From Candidatus Dormiibacterota bacterium (GTDB lineage: Bacteria > Chloroflexota > Dormibacteria > Aeolococcales > Aeolococcaceae), in assembly GCA_963709585.1 (NCBI GenBank), contig CAVPXI010000014.1:416001-480000 (forward strand): 64,000 nt of DNA. Direction: 5' to 3'. The first letter of the stretch is position 1, and each line of letters begins with the position of its first letter. This document shows positions 1-6,922 of the stretch, one piece after another. The notes below the pieces were generated by a model. It was not told the DNA's origin and ran no database searches. It saw only the letters and a program-made list of their open reading frames with translations. The translations under genes and the position numbers were made by a program.

Positions 1-1
1 G

Positions 2-307
2 GCAAGTGATGGCACGGTGAGCATCGTGATCGCGCTGGTTGTCGATGGCAGCCGTGCAGCAGCCGCCACTGATTATCCAAACTTTGTGAGCGCCGCCTGC
101 CCACCGGGGGGCCAGACCACGTCAAGTCACCCAACGATTGGAAGTGCGAGCAAAGCCGACGAGTTCGCGTGCGTCACTGGTGGGGACATTCAGGTCGCAT
201 TCACCCAAGGCGTCATGATGTGCGGGGTCTCGTCGGCTTCGACGGGTGTTACGGAGGCTCTCGCAAGGGCCGAATCCGCGAAGCTCACTCAATTGACTGG
301 CGTGTAG
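2..307 (+). CDS. hypothetical protein, 3' part (open at window edge)
   Basis: Frame is open from position 2 to TAG at 305-307; Ser/Thr/Ala-rich with 3 Cys, like other secreted proteins here; no family recognised. Confidence 0.4.
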   Translation, partial: ASDGTVSIVIALVVDGSRAAAATDYPNFVSAACPPGGQTTSSHPTIGSASKADEFACVTGGDIQVAFTQGVMMCGVSSASTGVTEALARAESAKLTQLTGV

Positions 308-623
308 CAGGCCGTCGAGTCCAAGCAACCGCACGGGCGATTGGTGACTTAGCTTCGCGCAAGACGCAAGGTCCGTTACGCGTTTCGAGACTACATTCGC
401 ACCACGCGTTCAAACCGTAGAGCCACGACCATCTCGGTCGGCTGTCAGGCCTACGGGCAGCCACCAGCCGCGCCGGTGATCGAGGAGCGGAGAGCTAACG
501 CAATCGGGCTGCGGCGACGAATTGAGCACCAAATATGAGCATCGCGTGAGCCTTTTCCCGGATGTCGCAGCGGTGCCTCCCGTCGGATGCTTGCGCCATC
601 TCACCGAGTACAGGAGGTAACAG

Positions 624-1382
624 ATGGCGATCGAGACTCGAGCAGCTGATTTGCTCTCTTCGGTAGAGCTGAGTCCACTTGAGGCTGCCTACCTCGCCGA
701 TGGAGTCCCCAGGGCGATTGGCGCCACCCTGGCCGGCCTCACACACATGGGGTTGATCGAGTTCCGGAGCGACCGAAAGGTGGTTGCTTTGAAGCCGGCG
801 CCGAGCAGTTTGGAGGATCCGATTCAACTTTCGGTGATCGACTTCGTGTCAAAGTCGAAGAACCCGAACTCGGTTGAGGACATTCGAAAACATGCCGAGC
901 CGGCCACGGAGCCGGTGCGCGATGCTCTCCAAGCTTCGGGCTTGCTCCTGAATGAGCGGGCCCGCTTGACCGGCGGATTGGCGATCGGCAGCGGGGGCCT
1001 CACGGCCTCCATCCTATTACTGAGTGCGGCGGGCGGTGGCATCTCCCTGAACTCAGTGTTTTGGGGATTGTTCGTGACGCTCGTCGCGACCCTTTACCTC
1101 GTCAAACTGCGACGCCGCACCCAACGTGGAAACGCCGTCTTGAAGCGCCTGCAGGAGGAGCACCTGGCCCTCAAGGAAACGACGCAGCACGCCCCGGCGC
1201 TGCTGACGCCGACGGATCTGGCGCTGGCCGTGGCCATCTACGGGCCGGCGATCCTCGAAGGCGGTCCGCTCAACGACATTGGCCACGCACTCAAGCGCGA
1301 GAGAAACAACCGCGGTGCCTGCGGTGGATGTGGCGGCTGCGGCGGCTGTGGCGGATGTGGCGGATGTGGCGGGTGCGCATGA
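624..1382 (+). CDS. TIGR04222-domain membrane protein with C-terminal (CGG)6C Cys/Gly tail; candidate MNIO substrate
   Basis: AGGAGG RBS at 612-617 and in-frame TAA just upstream fix the start; LSPLEAAYLADG..RAI.ATLAGL motif, two TM segments, RRRTQRG..LKRL, LALAVAIYG, tail GACGGCGGCGGCGGCGGCGGCA. Confidence 0.85.
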   Translation: MAIETRAADLLSSVELSPLEAAYLADGVPRAIGATLAGLTHMGLIEFRSDRKVVALKPAPSSLEDPIQLSVIDFVSKSKNPNSVEDIRKHAEPATEPVRDALQASGLLLNERARLTGGLAIGSGGLTASILLLSAAGGGISLNSVFWGLFVTLVATLYLVKLRRRTQRGNAVLKRLQEEHLALKETTQHAPALLTPTDLALAVAIYGPAILEGGPLNDIGHALKRERNNRGACGGCGGCGGCGGCGGCGGCA

Positions 1383-2212
1383 TGCCGCCGCTCGGTCTGG
1401 GAATCGGCTGGCGACCTGAACTGGCGCTCGCAATCGAGCGGCGTGAGGCGCTCGGCTTTGTCGAAGTGACGGCGGAGAACATCAGGCTCGACGACATCCC
1501 GCCGGCGCTGGCGCGGATGGTCGCGCGGGGGGTGCCAGTCATCGTGCACGGCCTCAGCCTTTCGCTTGGAGGAGCCGAGCAGCCGGATGCGCGGCGGCTC
1601 GACCACCTGGTCCGCGTGTCCCAGCGATTGGGCGCCAGCCTCGTCAGCGAGCATCTGGCATGCGTGCGGGCGGAAGGCCTGGAAGCGGGACACCTGCTTC
1701 CCGTCCCGCGAACTCGCGAGGCGCTGGAGGTCATCGTCGAAAACGTGGCCTGGACCAAGAGAATGCTGCCGTTCCCGCTGGCGTTAGAAAACATCGCCAC
1801 GCTGGTGGAGTGGCCGGGAGCGGCGATGGATGAAGCGTCGTTCCTGGCCGAGCTACTCAACCGAACGGACACAGCGCTGCTCTTCGATGTTTCCAACATG
1901 TACGCGAACGCGCGCAACGGCGGGTGGGATCCGGTAGTGGCCCTGGGCCGGCTTCCGCTCGGCCGTTTGGCCTACGTTCACGTGGCCGGCGGCACGCTGC
2001 GCGGCGATCTGTATCACGACACTCATGCGCACCCCGTGGGACCGGGCCCGCTGGCCTTGCTCGAAGAGCTCTGTTCGCGGATTGCGCCTCCCGGGGTCAT
2101 GCTGGAACGTGACGACGACTTTCCGCGAGAGTCGGAGCTGGAGGCTGAGCTGGAAGCCATTCGGATGGCCATCGCGCGCGGGGCCGCGCGGCGCATGGGC
2201 AACGCGAACTGA
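1379..2212 (+). CDS. DUF692 family multinuclear non-heme iron oxidative enzyme (MNIO, MbnB/TglH/ChrH/BufB-like)
   Basis: ATGA overlap with upstream stop; LGLGIGWRPEL, HGLSLSLGG, SEHLA, LENIA, LFDVSNMYAN, YVHVAGG, YHDTHAHPV, MLERDDDFP motifs. Confidence 0.93.
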   Translation: MMPPLGLGIGWRPELALAIERREALGFVEVTAENIRLDDIPPALARMVARGVPVIVHGLSLSLGGAEQPDARRLDHLVRVSQRLGASLVSEHLACVRAEGLEAGHLLPVPRTREALEVIVENVAWTKRMLPFPLALENIATLVEWPGAAMDEASFLAELLNRTDTALLFDVSNMYANARNGGWDPVVALGRLPLGRLAYVHVAGGTLRGDLYHDTHAHPVGPGPLALLEELCSRIAPPGVMLERDDDFPRESELEAELEAIRMAIARGAARRMGNAN

Positions 2213-2214
2213 TC

Positions 2215-2730
2215 ATGGACACGGCACGCCACCGTTTGGCTGCAATGGAAGCGCAATTCATCCGCTCCCTCTCGACCGGTGGGCCCTACTCCGCCGGCTC
2301 GGATCTCCGCGGGATGCGGGCAACATCCCAGCTCCTCCGGGCGAAGCGCGTGCGCACCATGGCGAGAGCCTGGCCGGAGCTGGCGGGCGTCCTCGGTAAC
2401 GGCCTTGCAGAGCGAGCGACCGACGCGTTGGCCGGCACACCACTTCCTCCCGGTGACCATGCGGTGCAGGACGGACTGATCGTTGCGCGTCATCTCGAGG
2501 CAGCGGGACCTATTCCCGACAGCCTGAAGCTGCGGATGCTCGGCGTGAGACTGCGTTACCACAGGAAACGAGGCCTGCTGGTTCAGTGGCCGCGCCCGGC
2601 ACTGGGATTCGCCTACCTTCGTCAGTCGGGACGCTTGATCTGCGCGCTCCGAGTTCCTGGATTACCGTTGCTGAGTATCTCCATCAGGGTCAGGTCGTCG
2701 CCCAGAGTGACGTCAGCTGACGTGGTGTAA
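2215..2730 (+). CDS. putative MNIO partner protein (SCO6045-C/DUF2063-like helical domain)
   Basis: 2 nt after DUF692 stop; RHRLAAMEAQFIRSL...LLRAKR..MARAWPELAGVLG...DG pattern typical of proteins fused or adjacent to actinobacterial DUF692. Confidence 0.65.
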   Translation: MDTARHRLAAMEAQFIRSLSTGGPYSAGSDLRGMRATSQLLRAKRVRTMARAWPELAGVLGNGLAERATDALAGTPLPPGDHAVQDGLIVARHLEAAGPIPDSLKLRMLGVRLRYHRKRGLLVQWPRPALGFAYLRQSGRLICALRVPGLPLLSISIRVRSSPRVTSADVV

Positions 2731-2949
2731 ATCCGGGGCTCGCTCGGCTACTCCACCGATGACGACCCGGACGGCAAGGGCCACGCGGATGTGCCTCGCG
2801 AGAGGATCGACCTGGCCACCGATCGGGAGACTTGACGGCCGGGGCGGTGCAGCCGGCGGTCGTGGGATCCCGGGCCCGTGCCACGCCTGCAATGTTATTG
2901 CCGGAAGTGGCTAAAACTTATACCGGGATGACATTTGTCCGTGCTGTGG

Positions 2950-2970
2950 CGAACAGGTGTTTGGTACAAT
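2950..2970 (+). promoter_or_regulatory. Gram-positive-type LexA (SOS) box overlapping an extended -10 promoter
   Basis: CGAAC-AGGT-GTTTG at 2950-2963 (GAAC-N4-GTTY); TGgTACAAT at 2962-2970, 6 nt before ATG 2977. Confidence 0.6.
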
Positions 2971-2976
2971 GTAGCA

Positions 2977-4189
2977 ATGGAAGCGTTCGCGATGCCGGAT
3001 GCGCGAGAGCGTATAGATGAGGCTGTCGATACGCTCGTCGGCGAGTTCATCGACGCTTTCTCCACACACGCCCTAGGCGCGGACCTGATCGACATCCGGC
3101 GGTCGATCGATCGGCTCGAAGCCGAGTTCATCCGCCGCTTGTATCGCTTCCATTGCGCTCGCAGAGCACAGGCCGACGGCGGCGGGAGCACGGTGTCCTG
3201 GCTGCGACGTTGCGGCATGACGGTCAAGGCGGCCGCCTACCGCGTGCACCTGGCGCGGACGCTCGGCGAGTTGCCGGCCGCGCTCGACAGCGCCCGTGCC
3301 GGTCGCGCCTCCTTCAGCAACGTGACCATGATCGCCCACCTCGCCGAGGATGTCGGCGTGGAGCAGGTGGCGCCGCTCGAGAGCATCCTGGTGGGAGCCG
3401 CGGAGACGCTCGACCCCAGGGCCATGCGCACCCTCACCCAGGTGACCCGGCTGCGGCTCGACCCCGATGGCGTGCTCGCCGATGACAACCGCGCCCACGA
3501 GCGTCGCTGGTTCGAGTGCGAGCAGACGTATGGCGGCGTGTTCGTCCTGCGTGGTGAGCTCGATGCCGAAGGCGGTGCGCTGGTGAAGACCGCGATCGAT
3601 GCGCTCAGTCACGGTATGAGCCGTGGAGAGACGCGGTCGGCGTCCCAGCGCCGTGCCGACGCGCTGGTCGATCTTGCAGCCACTCAGCTGCGCTGCGGTG
3701 ACCACCGCGATGTGCACGGGCAGCGGCCGCATCTCATGGTCACGGTGAGCGCGGAGACGCTGCGCTCTGGAGCTGATGCACAGCCCGCCGAGTTGAGCGG
3801 TGTAGGCCCGATCCATCCGGAAACCGCGCGCCGGATCGCCTGTGACGCGGTGCGGACGTTGGTGACGGTGGCGCCGCCCGCCGATGGTTCGGCGTGGACG
3901 GCCGGGAGCACGGGGGTGACGCCGCTCTCGGTCGGCCGGGCCACGCGCACCATCCCCGCACACATCCGCACCGCGCTGAACCTCCGCGACCAGGGCTGCC
4001 GCTTTCCGGGGTGCGACCGCCCGCCCCGCGTGGACCGATGGCCACCACATCATCCACTGGCCGGACGGCGGCCGAACCGAGGTCGACAACCTGGTCTCCC
4101 TGTGCCGGCCGCACCACCGCGCGGTGCACGAGCAGCGCTGGCGCATCCACATCGCAGACGGAATTGCCGTCGTGGAGCCGCCACCCTGA
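2977..4189 (+). CDS. DUF222 / HNH endonuclease (13E12-repeat family), +1 frameshift near 4026
   Basis: QRRADALVDL, RPHLMVTVS, TARRIACDA, LSVGRATR, RDQGCRFPGCDRP; the shifted frame continues AWTDGHHIIHWPDGGRTEVDNLVSLCRPHHRAVHE to TGA 4187-4189. Confidence 0.85.
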
Positions 4190-4327
4190 GGACAGTTTGA
4201 CTCGGACTGAGCCCGCGCCCGTCTGGTCCTGATCGCCGCGTGCTCCCGGCGCAGCACGCCAGGCGATGGCACCTCCATCAACGGTGCCCGCACATGTCGA
4301 GGGAAGAGCGACGAGGCGCATGTCGCG

Positions 4328-4406: not shown

Positions 4407-4550
4407 GTGGTAGCTGCCCATGCGTGTCCTGCGTTCTCACCTGACGGACAGCGGCTCGCCTACGGTGAGGCCCGCGCCTCGGGCAGCGTCGGGGACGATC
4501 GAGGCGTGTGGCCGGTTTCGGATCGAGCCGTGGTGGTCGCGGGAGTCCGC
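4407..4550 (+). pseudogene. internal fragment of a TolB-like beta-propeller anti-sigma paralog
   Basis: Translates CPAFSPDGQRLAYGEARASG....RGVWPVSDRAVV, almost identical to an internal segment of the 15657-17358 product. Confidence 0.75.
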
Positions 4551-4599
4551 GATCGGCGACCTGTGCAGCGGCGGCACACGCGGCTGATGGGGTCCGCGC

Positions 4600-4700
4600 G
4601 AGCTGTCAGGCAGTTGACTGACAACGGATGGCCACGGTGCAACGCTCGCGTCACTGCGAGCGGTGGCATCGCAAATGCCACATCGGGGAGCGAGACCATG
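4600..4700 (+). promoter_or_regulatory. shared ~100-nt lipoprotein leader, copy 1
   Basis: Aligns with 11384-11485 on the minus strand: TGACTGACA.CGGATG.CCACGGTGC.ACGCTCGCG...TGGCAT...GCCACATC.GGGAG..GA.ACCATG. Confidence 0.65.
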
Positions 4701-5473
4701 ACAGTCGATAACAGGTCCAACAAGATAATTGGACACTTGCGCGCGAACGCGCTCGTGGGCGCGATCGCCGTCGGGCTTCTGGCAAGCGCATGCGCGGCGA
4801 CAACCTCGACACCCACGTCGTCGAAAGGCACCACGGCCGCGGCGACGCCCACTTCCGCACTCGGCGCCGGCAACGCGAAACTCATGGCCGTGAGGCAGAC
4901 AGCGCAGGTCCTAGGGACGGGCACTTATTCCAGCTACACCGTGGCCGTGCCCTCAGGCTGGCTCAATCTGGGTGAATTCGTCGTCAAGTACAACTCGGAA
5001 GAACCCGGGCCGGTGCTGGGCCTCAGCGTGTGGAACGTGGGACTGGTCTACCGCGACCCGTGCCACTGGAAGGGCAACGGGTTCGTCCCCAAGCCAGGCG
5101 TCGATAACCTCGTTGCCGCGCTCGTCGCCCAGAAGCTGCGAAACCCCACCACGCCGACCGACGTGACCCTCGCCGGGTACTCGGGCAAATATCTCGAGCT
5201 GTCGGTTCCCGCTGACATGAAGTCGACTAGATGGACTGACTTCGACGCCTGCGACATCGCCTTCAACGGCATCGATCGCGACTTTGCCGGCTGGCTCGGC
5301 ATCGGCAACGGCGAACGCTATGAGCAGGTCCCGGGCCAGGTCGACCAGCTGTGGGTCCTCAACGTCAATGGGCAACGGCTGCTCGTTGATGCCACGTTCT
5401 CGCCGGACACCTCCCAGCTGACCGGACGCAATTGGATCAAGTCGTCAGCTCACTCCAGATTGGAGGTCACTAA
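4698..5473 (+). CDS. lipoprotein, paralog of the extracellular domain of the adjacent anti-sigma; probable -1 frameshift near 5417
   Basis: GGGAG RBS, lipobox LASAC, Thr-rich linker; VYRDPCHW...TPTDVTLAGY..FDACD...VPGQVDQLWVL shared with 6026-6922; the shifted frame gives DRTQLDQVVSSLQIGGH* matching the paralog end. Confidence 0.75.
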
Positions 5474-5511
5474 CCGCGGCGGCACGCGCCTCCGGGAGCG
5501 TAAGTAAGGGA

Positions 5512-6033
5512 GTGATTGGATCAGCGAGCCAGATCACGAAAAGCGAATCCCTGCCTGAGCTGGCGTTCGAGGCTCTGGTGGCCACCGACGCAAAGCGGCT
5601 GTACACACTCGCGCTCTCCATCCTCAGGGACGATGGCGAGGCCGAGGACGCGGTGCAGGAGACGCTGCTCAAGGCATGGCGATCGTGGCCTTCCATCCGG
5701 GACAGCGATCACCTCCCGCGCTGGCTGACCCGCGTCTGCGTGAACCACTGCACCAGCGTGCGCCGGCGCCTCCGCGCGCGAGGCGGGCCGCCACTCGAAC
5801 TCTTCGAGGCGGCCGGATCGTGGGGTGGTCAGAGGAGCCCCGCAGAGATCATCGACGTCGATCGTGCATACCGCCGCCTGTCGATCAGGCAGCGGGCAGC
5901 GATCACCCTCAACTACGGATACGGCTACTCGGTCGAGGAGTTCGCGGATTTGATGGGATGCAGGCCCGGGACCGTGCGCACCCATGTCGCACGCGGGCTG
6001 GCCTCATTGCGAAAGGAGCTTGACGATGCTTGA
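5512..6033 (+). CDS. ECF (sigma-24 type) RNA polymerase sigma factor, paralog 1
   Basis: AEDAVQETLLKAW (region 2), WLTRVCVN, LSIRQRAAITL..GYSVEE.ADLMGCRPGTVRTHVARG (region 4). Confidence 0.92.
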   Translation: MIGSASQITKSESLPELAFEALVATDAKRLYTLALSILRDDGEAEDAVQETLLKAWRSWPSIRDSDHLPRWLTRVCVNHCTSVRRRLRARGGPPLELFEAAGSWGGQRSPAEIIDVDRAYRRLSIRQRAAITLNYGYGYSVEEFADLMGCRPGTVRTHVARGLASLRKELDDA

Positions 6034-6922
6034 CACCGAGCCCGAATTGGACCGAAAGCTGCGGGCTCTGTACAACCACATCAAGACTTAGGATCCGCCG
6101 GCAAGCGTCGCACTTTTTACGGTGCCGACGGCGCGCTCGCGCCATCAGGTGGTCAGTCGTCTCGTCGCCATTGCCGCGGTTGCCGCATTAGCGGCAGCGA
6201 TAGGGCTGTTCGCGATTGAGTTGAACGGGCACCGTGGCACCATCTCGCCAAGGCCGACGACCCAGCCCGCGTCGACGCCGAGCCCTAAGTCCACGCCCGT
6301 TCCCACGTTCAGTACCGGCGTCGTGCCACTCACCGCCGGGACGCATTCGGCGCTGGTGCTGGCCTCGGGCACCTATCCCGAGTACACCGTGGTCGTGCCC
6401 AAGGGCTGGTTCGAGCAGGACGGCCACTTCATGCTCAGCGGAGCGACCAAGCCGCTGCTGGGCTTCAGTATCTGGGACGTCGGACAGGTCTATCGCGACC
6501 CATGCCACTGGCAGGGCCAGGGGTTCGACCCCGGGCCGAGCGTCGCGAACCTCGTTGCCGCGCTCGTCGCGCAGAAGACGCGCAACGCCACCACACCGAC
6601 CGACGTGACCCTCGCCGGGTACACGGGCAAATACCTCGAGTGGTCGGTGCCCGCGGACATGAAGTCGAGCGCGTGGAGCGAGTTCGACGCCTGCGACGTC
6701 GACGCCACAGGCAATCACAACTTCAACAGCTGGCTTGCCTACGGCGTGGGCTACCGCTATGAGGAGGTCCCGGGCCAGGTCGACCAGTTGTGGGTCCTCG
6801 ACGTCAACGGGCAGCGACTGGTCGTTGATGCCACGTACGCACCCGACACCTCCCAAAGCCAGCGGGCGGCATTGGAGCACGTCGTGGAGTCACTCCGGTT
6901 CGGTGCCCGGAAGCCGACGTGA
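6026..6922 (+). CDS. single-pass membrane anti-sigma factor candidate with in-frame TAG at 6089-6091
   Basis: Start overlaps sigma stop; MLDTEPELDRKLRALYNHIKT*DPP aligns to paralog MLDIEPELDRQLQAMYDRIATQDP; TM helix, Pro/Thr linker, extracellular domain. Confidence 0.75.

Follow-up and report, generated by a model that had tools for sequence, protein, structure and literature searches.

The closest described relatives of the locus studied here are gene clusters in which a TIGR04222 protein accompanies a multinuclear iron oxidase (MNIO) and a partner protein of the PME-type 2 class. In the 2025 account of these clusters, TIGR04222 proteins are put forward as putative MNIO substrates with PME-type 2 partners, their modification being left for investigation (Microb Genom 2025, PMC12452194), and PME-type 2 partners are characterized as proteins that go without the DUF2063 Pfam signature and are structurally like NGO1945 (3dee) and TglI (8hi7/8hci). 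For the HvfB and HvfC pair, a preprint reports that six repeated C-terminal cysteines of HvfA are converted by four-electron oxidation into copper-binding 5-thiooxazoles and that the HvfC partner is needed for the active mixed-valent diiron state (bioRxiv 10.64898/2026.07.17.739211), and the thiooxazole-forming FonBC is described as preferring a Cys-Gly dyad (PMC13097082). Here, we describe a three-gene locus at positions 624 to 2730 of a 64,000-nucleotide stretch of DNA from a Candidatus Dormiibacterota bacterium (assembly GCA_963709585.1, contig CAVPXI010000014.1, positions 416,001 to 480,000 of the forward strand; hereafter, the window), which encodes a TIGR04222 membrane protein (T), an MNIO enzyme (M), and a partner protein (P). 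We favor, with moderate confidence, the interpretation that these genes form a maturation module in which an enzyme composed of M and P docks on T and oxidizes its Cys-Gly tail to a tethered, metal-binding product.

Anatomy and conservation of the three-gene locus

The genes for T (252 amino acids, 624..1382), M (277 amino acids, 1379..2212), and P (171 amino acids, 2215..2730) all lie on the forward strand, with the stop codon of T and the start codon of M overlapping as ATGA at 1379-1382 and a gap of two bases (TC) after 2212 before P starts at 2215. A ribosome-binding site, AGGAGG, is found at 612-617, six bases 5' of the T start. This is the tight operon that an earlier sequence-only reading of the stretch had described, and every checkable detail of that description proved correct.

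T matches the TIGR04222 profile with 94.9 bits (cut-off 43) over profile positions 28-228 of 229, and its AlphaFold2 model, built on an alignment with 74 homologues, has a mean predicted local distance difference test score (pLDDT) of 86 and a predicted TM-score of 0.80. Residues 1-110 (624..953) comprise helices and a winged helix that make up the N-terminal part of a GPP34-like domain (PF05719, Foldseek), followed at residues 111-162 (954..1109) by a transmembrane helical hairpin and then the basic motif KLRRRTQR (161-168). The two hydrophobic helices that the sequence-only reading had expected are seen both in the hydropathy profile and as AlphaFold2 helices (111-136 and 142-162). Beyond the hairpin, residues 167-223 (1122..1292) form a folded helical region with pLDDT >90 and conserved positions at G169, L173, and L183, whereas residues 231-252 are disordered with pLDDT <50. 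The tail proper, A(CGG)6CA at residues 232-252 (1317..1379), is the putative core and substrate; the C-terminus reads ACGGCGGCGGCGGCGGCGGCA, with the protein ending in ...NRGACGGCGGCGGCGGCGGCGGCA, so that the seven-cysteine ending noted earlier is indeed present. Its cysteines, all within the last 20 residues of a protein whose gene overlaps the MNIO start, are residues 233, 236, 239, 242, 245, 248, and 251, and six of the seven are followed by glycine. A KRER/PRE motif is conserved directly before the tail.

The match of T to PF05719 (GPP34) reaches 25.2 bits and stays under the gathering cut-off of 29.1, which leaves T outside the family as defined, and its top Foldseek matches, GOLPH3 (3kn1) and Vps74, extend over about 250 columns and are weak (E 0.036, TM-score 0.29). 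Taken together, the GOLPH3/Vps74 likeness and the sub-threshold GPP34 match suggest that T is a single soluble domain interrupted by the transmembrane hairpin.

M is a DUF692 enzyme, as had been recognized before, with 252.2 bits against PF05114 (cut-off 25) over profile positions 2-261 of 263. Among NCBIfam models, it comes closest to BufB (NF050167; 186.5 bits, cut-off 310) and HvfB (NF003818; 157.2 bits, cut-off 360), and judged by these scores, both below their cut-offs, M is related to BufB and HvfB without being an equivalog of either. M also aligns to 3bww, TglH, and MbnB, and the residues that are invariant among 31 aligned module enzymes (H57, H92, E137, D170, N173, H201, D214, H216, and E243 of M) fall in the motifs so aligned. 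By analogy with the MbnB and TglH structures, these invariant residues are the putative metal ligands of M.

P has no match in Pfam (E up to 0.1) or NCBIfam and none among the sequences of the Protein Data Bank (PDB) by sequence and profile searches (E up to 10). A search of 1.84 billion cluster representatives brings up 277 relatives (E up to 0.001), mostly around 160 amino acids long. The AlphaFold2 model of P (2215..2730; pLDDT 92.4, alignment of 84) has five helices and then five strands, giving a helical N-terminal and a five-stranded C-terminal half. Foldseek found nothing in the PDB at E up to 0.001, with MbnC second at E 0.36. In a comparison with 48,161 chains (VIA-align), the best match is TglI (8hci_C; Z 7.3, root-mean-square deviation 3.7 over 147 aligned residues) and the second NGO1945 (3dee_A; Z 6.5, 3.9 over 117), with MbnC at ranks 4 and 5 (Z 5.6 and 5.5). 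Sequence identity of P to TglI and MbnC is only 7-12%, yet because four of the five best structural matches are solved MNIO partners, we identify P as an MNIO partner, which agrees with the partner-like third protein of the sequence-only reading. That reading had also pointed to DUF2063 (PF09836): P itself has no match, 18 of the 84 members of its family match weakly (best E 0.0021), and with 171 rather than about 250-260 amino acids it is not a PME-type 1 protein. Its gene directly after that of the MNIO, its missing DUF2063 signature, and its TglI/NGO1945-like structure are those of PME-type 2, and the model thus places P, by its predicted fold, in the class of known partners TglI, NGO1945, and MbnC.

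We examined how far this arrangement is kept by scanning metagenomes with P as the anchor, which makes the search independent of the tail. This yielded 80 loci, which fall into 48 clusters at 90% identity. P is directly preceded by an MNIO gene in 75 of these loci; the other five have no more than 421 bp of upstream sequence, and all 62 loci with 450 bp or more upstream have the MNIO gene. T can be looked for in 41 loci, where the MNIO gene is complete and has another 300 bp or more upstream of it; a TIGR04222 gene directly precedes the MNIO gene in 39 of them (23 of 25 clusters at 90% identity), and all 39 of these T genes end in a C-G(2-5) repeat with 2-7 cysteines in the last 30 residues. 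Of the two exceptions, L108 has the order M-P-x-T, and its sister locus L109 displays a 4-Cys tail, while L064 (1682-2428) has no T and an MNIO missing about 25 residues including the conserved HVAGG stretch. L064 is the only locus with enough upstream DNA and no TIGR04222 gene, and it looks like a decaying module. The profile searches and neighborhood comparison that had been suggested as checks thus find TIGR04222 and PF05114 above their cut-offs and the T-M-P order preserved. Gaps of 0-61 nt between T and M and mostly of at most 57 nt between M and P exclude a small precursor hidden inside the module.

Beyond the three genes, the surroundings differ by lineage and include type II secretion system genes, amino-acid ABC transporters, and enoyl-CoA hydratases. 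Of the 23 loci that span 5.7 kb or more, 19 supplied 97 flanking open reading frames (ORFs) for a Pfam scan, which found no shared protease, exporter, DoxX, or small Cys-rich ORF, and from this absence of shared flanking genes we take T, M, and P alone to be the conserved core. A profile search of genome contigs gave three loci, and the closest named loci are found in metagenome-assembled genomes (MAGs) labeled Candidatus Dormiibacterota and in one labeled Solirubrobacteraceae. Within the window's phylum, TIGR04222 exceeds its cut-off in 3 of 401 sampled genomes, the window genome included, and in 0 of 3 other genomes of the same genus, numbers too small to gauge co-occurrence.

A second sample was anchored on T and drawn from 401 genomes of the phylum of the Solirubrobacteraceae MAG, with 23 TIGR04222 matches above the cut-off in 17 genomes. 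The C-terminus is readable in 19 of the 23, four having been dropped for contig ends or merged frames (L130, L134/L146, L147). An MNIO gene is found in the locus of all nine T proteins whose last 30 residues contain two or more cysteines, compared to three of the ten with at most one (MNIO within 1.5 kb), or six of ten after five loci were widened to about ±6 kb; the sampled genomes are mutually related, and these counts carry no statistical test. The correlation between tail and DUF692 that had been proposed as a test consequently goes in the anticipated direction, the tail tracking the MNIO. Four other tail-poor T copies have no MNIO within the 1.5 kb examined, and all of them reside in genomes with another T and an MNIO. 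The tail-less loci of one actinobacterial subfamily (L150-L154, in genomes G696, G425, G795, G618, and G670) have a fused MNIO-partner ORF of 439-556 amino acids and also carry PTH2-like or DUF4142 genes and a TAP-like alpha/beta hydrolase. Their arrangement matches the "adjamnio-II - MNIO - TIGR04222" type of PMC12452194.

The window genome itself contains two MNIO and two TIGR04222 genes, all four of them in two paralogous modules, one in the window (C14) and one on another contig (C21). Between the paralogues, the ratio of nonsynonymous to synonymous substitution rates (dN/dS) comes to 0.45 (T), 0.23 (M), and 0.43 (P), and the tail peptide is kept while synonymous codons differ. This combination indicates purifying selection on all three genes in either copy, and hence that selection on the proteins maintains both modules. 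The codons of the tail are mixed (Cys TGC/TGT; Gly GGT/GGA/GGC/GGG), and a simple DNA microsatellite as its origin is ruled out by such mixed codons differing between the paralogues with the peptide kept.

Predicted docking and the probable chemistry and location of the tail

We modeled M and P together with residues 167-252 of T, each with its own alignment, in three runs that gave interface scores (ipSAE) of 0.70, 0.69, and 0.72; the best of three controls, in which unrelated proteins replaced the T fragment (twice) or M (once), scored 0.00. When the method was calibrated, 116 of 157 solved complexes attained this mark, against 2 of 215 mismatched pairs. At least 52% of contacts recur between the runs, the scored T fragment has a pLDDT of 61 or more, and the confident contacts connect T 181-198 with M 12-21, 41-47, and 248-251. 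The model supports binding of T to M without showing it. The sequence-only reading had looked to a model of this kind for the tail inside the active site, and here the outcome is divided: the T fragment docks on M, and the tail is not placed in the active site.

That the tail is the MNIO substrate is well supported by inference, because synteny, translational coupling, selection, the partner fold, the disordered Cys-Gly tail, and the predicted complex all fit. In the scheme that we propose, T would be made as an intact membrane protein with a GPP34-like cytoplasmic domain, the transmembrane hairpin, and the disordered seven-Cys tail. M, as a BufB/HvfB-like MNIO, and P, as a TglI/DUF2063-like partner, would assemble into a cytoplasmic enzyme. 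This enzyme would dock on T at the folded segment that directly follows the hairpin and then, in an O2-dependent reaction, oxidize the tail cysteines one by one, most likely to 5-thiooxazoles. By analogy, stepwise 5-thiooxazole formation is the most likely reaction because of the HvfBC/FonBC precedent and because six of the seven tail cysteines are followed by glycine. This would yield a chain of ligands for soft metals (copper) that is tethered to the membrane on its cytoplasmic side and that stays attached, because the module has no protease or exporter.

T may do more than carry the substrate. In all five tail-less loci of the actinobacterial subfamily introduced above, an MNIO::partner fusion gene lies within 5 kb of the TIGR04222 gene, and a link between T and MNIO that outlasts the loss of the tail points to a second role of T in docking or scaffolding; T thus probably combines the parts of substrate and docking subunit. 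A more elaborate version of the same idea, which we offer as tentative and would not bet on in all its parts, has T acting both as substrate and as dedicated docking subunit, with the GPP34-like domain recruiting the enzyme (a role kept in the tail-less relatives) and up to seven Cys-Gly dyads becoming thiooxazoles, to leave a permanent inner-face metallophore that is never released and serves as a copper/redox buffer or sensor.

Whether the tail lies in the cytoplasm or in the periplasm decides what the product can do, and the clade of the window's T is the simplest case to consider. An extra N-terminal hydrophobic helix (TM0) occurs in 53 of the 74 aligned homologues; the window clade is without it, no upstream start codon is available that could supply one to the window's T, and with no signal peptide either, the clade lacks the means to export the N-terminal half. 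The 18 residues after the second helix of the hairpin (TM2) contain on average 5.3-6.4 Lys+Arg across the 74 homologues, the stretch after TM0 contains 2.5 in the TM0-bearing homologues, and the short N-tail before TM0 is acidic (0.38 Lys+Arg versus 1.47 Asp+Glu). By the positive-inside rule, this pattern of charges would put both domain and tail in the cytoplasm, and the N- and C-terminal parts of T align together to single-domain GOLPH3 and Vps74 (Foldseek). From the charge tally and the single-domain fold, we infer that the tail is cytoplasmic, in line with what the sequence-only reading had concluded from KLRRRTQR after TM2.

The published view differs and places TIGR04222 tails in the periplasm on the basis of AlphaFold2 models (PMC12452194). 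If so, the tail might be modified in the cytoplasm and then translocated, to act in the manner of a tethered bufferin, either periplasmic or on the surface of the cell, much as bufferins and oxazolin act outside the cytoplasm. Ahead of the tail, many members have a moderately hydrophobic segment, whose hydropathy averages 1.23 in those with TM0 and reaches about 2.2 in single sequences and which would suit such a passage, but in the window clade this segment (residues 197-215) averages 0.73 and includes about two charged residues. Considering also that both flanks of the hairpin are basic and together align to one GOLPH3-like domain, and that the clade has nothing with which to export the N-terminal half, we regard translocation of this tail as unlikely.

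Like the periplasmic placement, several further observations weigh against the maturation module as we conceive it. The TIGR04222-MNIO link does not need a Cys tail, as the tail-less subfamily demonstrates; the structural Z-scores of P are middling taken alone; and M, scoring below the curated cut-offs of BufB and HvfB, may differ from them in its chemistry. In the model of the complex, only T 181-198 is placed confidently and the tail stays out of the active site, no confident contact between T and P is reported, and T 181-198 lies inside the folded domain of the full-length model, such that the isolated fragment may expose buried surfaces. The literature on TIGR04222, PME-type partners, and MNIOs from 2025 onwards yielded no experimental study on the modification of any TIGR04222 protein. 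One could imagine that T is not a substrate at all and instead a membrane docking or regulatory subunit whose unmodified Cys-Gly tail binds metal or iron, with the enzyme acting elsewhere, and both the persistent linkage in the tail-less subfamily and the use of the folded segment of T, not its tail, for the confident contacts would agree with this. It would leave unaccounted for the Cys tail on every one of the 39 MNIO-adjacent T proteins of the P-anchored sample, where no other Cys-rich ORF is conserved, and the difference between nine of nine and six of ten in the T-anchored one, and we consider it quite unlikely. Release of the modified tail as a classical ribosomal peptide that is modified after its synthesis (RiPP), with T as a very long leader cut by a protease encoded elsewhere, seems to us very unlikely: the characterized MNIO products are all peptides, the conserved KRER/PRE motif before the tail is a candidate cleavage site, and a TAP-like hydrolase sits beside T in the tail-less subfamily, but neither 23 long loci nor the window has a conserved protease or exporter next to the module, and a leader would not need a folded, membrane-embedded part of 230 residues that is conserved under purifying selection. 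The maturation module thus remains our preferred interpretation, and its core, the earlier proposal that MNIO and partner act on the tail of T, fits all of the computed evidence, with the qualifications that the idea was already in print and that the link between T and MNIO is not one of the tail only.

The duplicated block and neighboring genes

The two modules of the window genome are part of a duplicated block of about 7 kb with 77-87% nucleotide identity between the copies, located at G000:C14 ~413125-420190 (window 1-4190 plus upstream sequence) and on G000:C21 (L006 3246-12256). It comprises a GerE regulator, a 571-amino acid SBP_bac_11 protein, a 341-amino acid membrane protein, T-M-P, and a DUF222 gene, with the C21 copy containing about 1.7 kb extra between P and the DUF222 gene. 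The region just upstream of T (464..623, forward strand) is kept in both copies, with 87% identity by blastn to the C21 copy from position 464. A promoter scan of window positions 1-3200 found no sigma-70-like promoter, terminator-like sites in the same interval are at the level expected by chance, and Rfam has no match in the whole window. Sequencing runs labeled as RNA contain contigs over parts of the operon with only 90-96% likeness; these contigs derive from relatives, may be DNA, and are no evidence of transcription of the window copy.

The genes around the module include the 341-amino acid membrane protein without family, the SBP_bac_11 protein, the GerE regulator, the DUF222 gene, and an ECF sigma factor. 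As far as Pfam shows, the observation of the sequence-only reading that no precursor, protease, or exporter is encoded nearby holds. The membrane-anchored protein of 341 amino acids, whose 3' end occupies 2..307 of the window (forward strand) and which belongs to no known family, keeps its upstream position in the closest relatives alone (L036, L039, L041, and L042) and is probably not part of the module. A GerE/LuxR-type regulator (134 amino acids) and an unusually long SBP_bac_11 protein (around 560-680 amino acids) are encoded just outside the window, on its upstream side (L005 9151-11273, minus strand), and accompany T-M-P in the closest relatives as well (L036, L037, L041, L042, and L046); in L037, both are on the same strand and immediately upstream. 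The two may serve the operon as a lineage-specific pair of sensor and regulator.

On the other side of the module, window positions 2935-4200 hold the DUF222 gene, which is of the kind usually fused to an HNH nuclease. The last 60 or so residues of its product are Arg/Pro-rich and overlap another long ORF (3894-4232), making this a candidate frameshift. Farther downstream, genes at 4407-5507 and 6122-6922 flank the ECF sigma factor gene (5512-6033), and their products share a C-terminal domain without Pfam family (e.g., ...VYRDPCHW.G.GF...).

Comparison with described MNIO systems

The soluble parts of T weakly resemble the GPP34/GOLPH3/Vps74 fold, from which T differs by the inserted transmembrane hairpin and the Cys-Gly tail, and no functional link is implied by this resemblance. 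Among MNIO systems, TglH/TglI of Pseudomonas syringae and MbnB/MbnC of methanotrophs are likewise heteromeric enzymes of MNIO and partner that act on cysteine. They differ in their chemistry, which is beta-carbon excision in one case and formation of oxazolone-thioamide in the other, and in their precursors, which are small. Closer in layout are HvfA/HvfB/HvfC of Haemophilus influenzae and BufA/BufB/BufC, where an MNIO and a required partner act on the product of the upstream gene, several of whose cysteines near the C-terminus, each with a glycine after it, become copper-binding 5-thiooxazoles. The substrates of the oxazolin and bufferin pathways are small secreted peptides or proteins with Sec signals, whereas the candidate substrate here is a membrane protein of 252 amino acids, and their partners are full DUF2063-RRE proteins (PME-type 1), often accompanied by DoxX, as opposed to a short PME-type 2 partner and no DoxX at our locus. 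If our interpretation is true, MNIO chemistry would extend from small secreted peptides to an intact membrane protein, and bacteria would gain metal-binding heterocycles that are strung together and fixed at the membrane.

The clusters of TIGR04222, MNIO, and PME-type 2 genes reported by Antoine, Leprevost et al. (PMC12452194) are the nearest match, and the substrate idea itself is already published there. They contain the same three families in the same order, a TIGR04222 protein with a Cys-rich, low-complexity C-terminus and no signal peptide as in T, and an MNIO close to those of bufferins, as M is. The class is a bioinformatic one, presented without complex model or experiment, and with three genes, no tailoring enzymes, and a soluble C-terminal fragment of 86 residues, the module of the window is compact and a convenient test case for this 2025 prediction. 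It differs from the clusters as they are portrayed there in that TM0 is absent, the tail is argued to be cytoplasmic, and the module is duplicated in one genome. What is new here is the TM0-less clade with the argument for a cytoplasmic tail, the tail-less relatives beside MNIO genes, the duplicated copy, and the prediction of docking.

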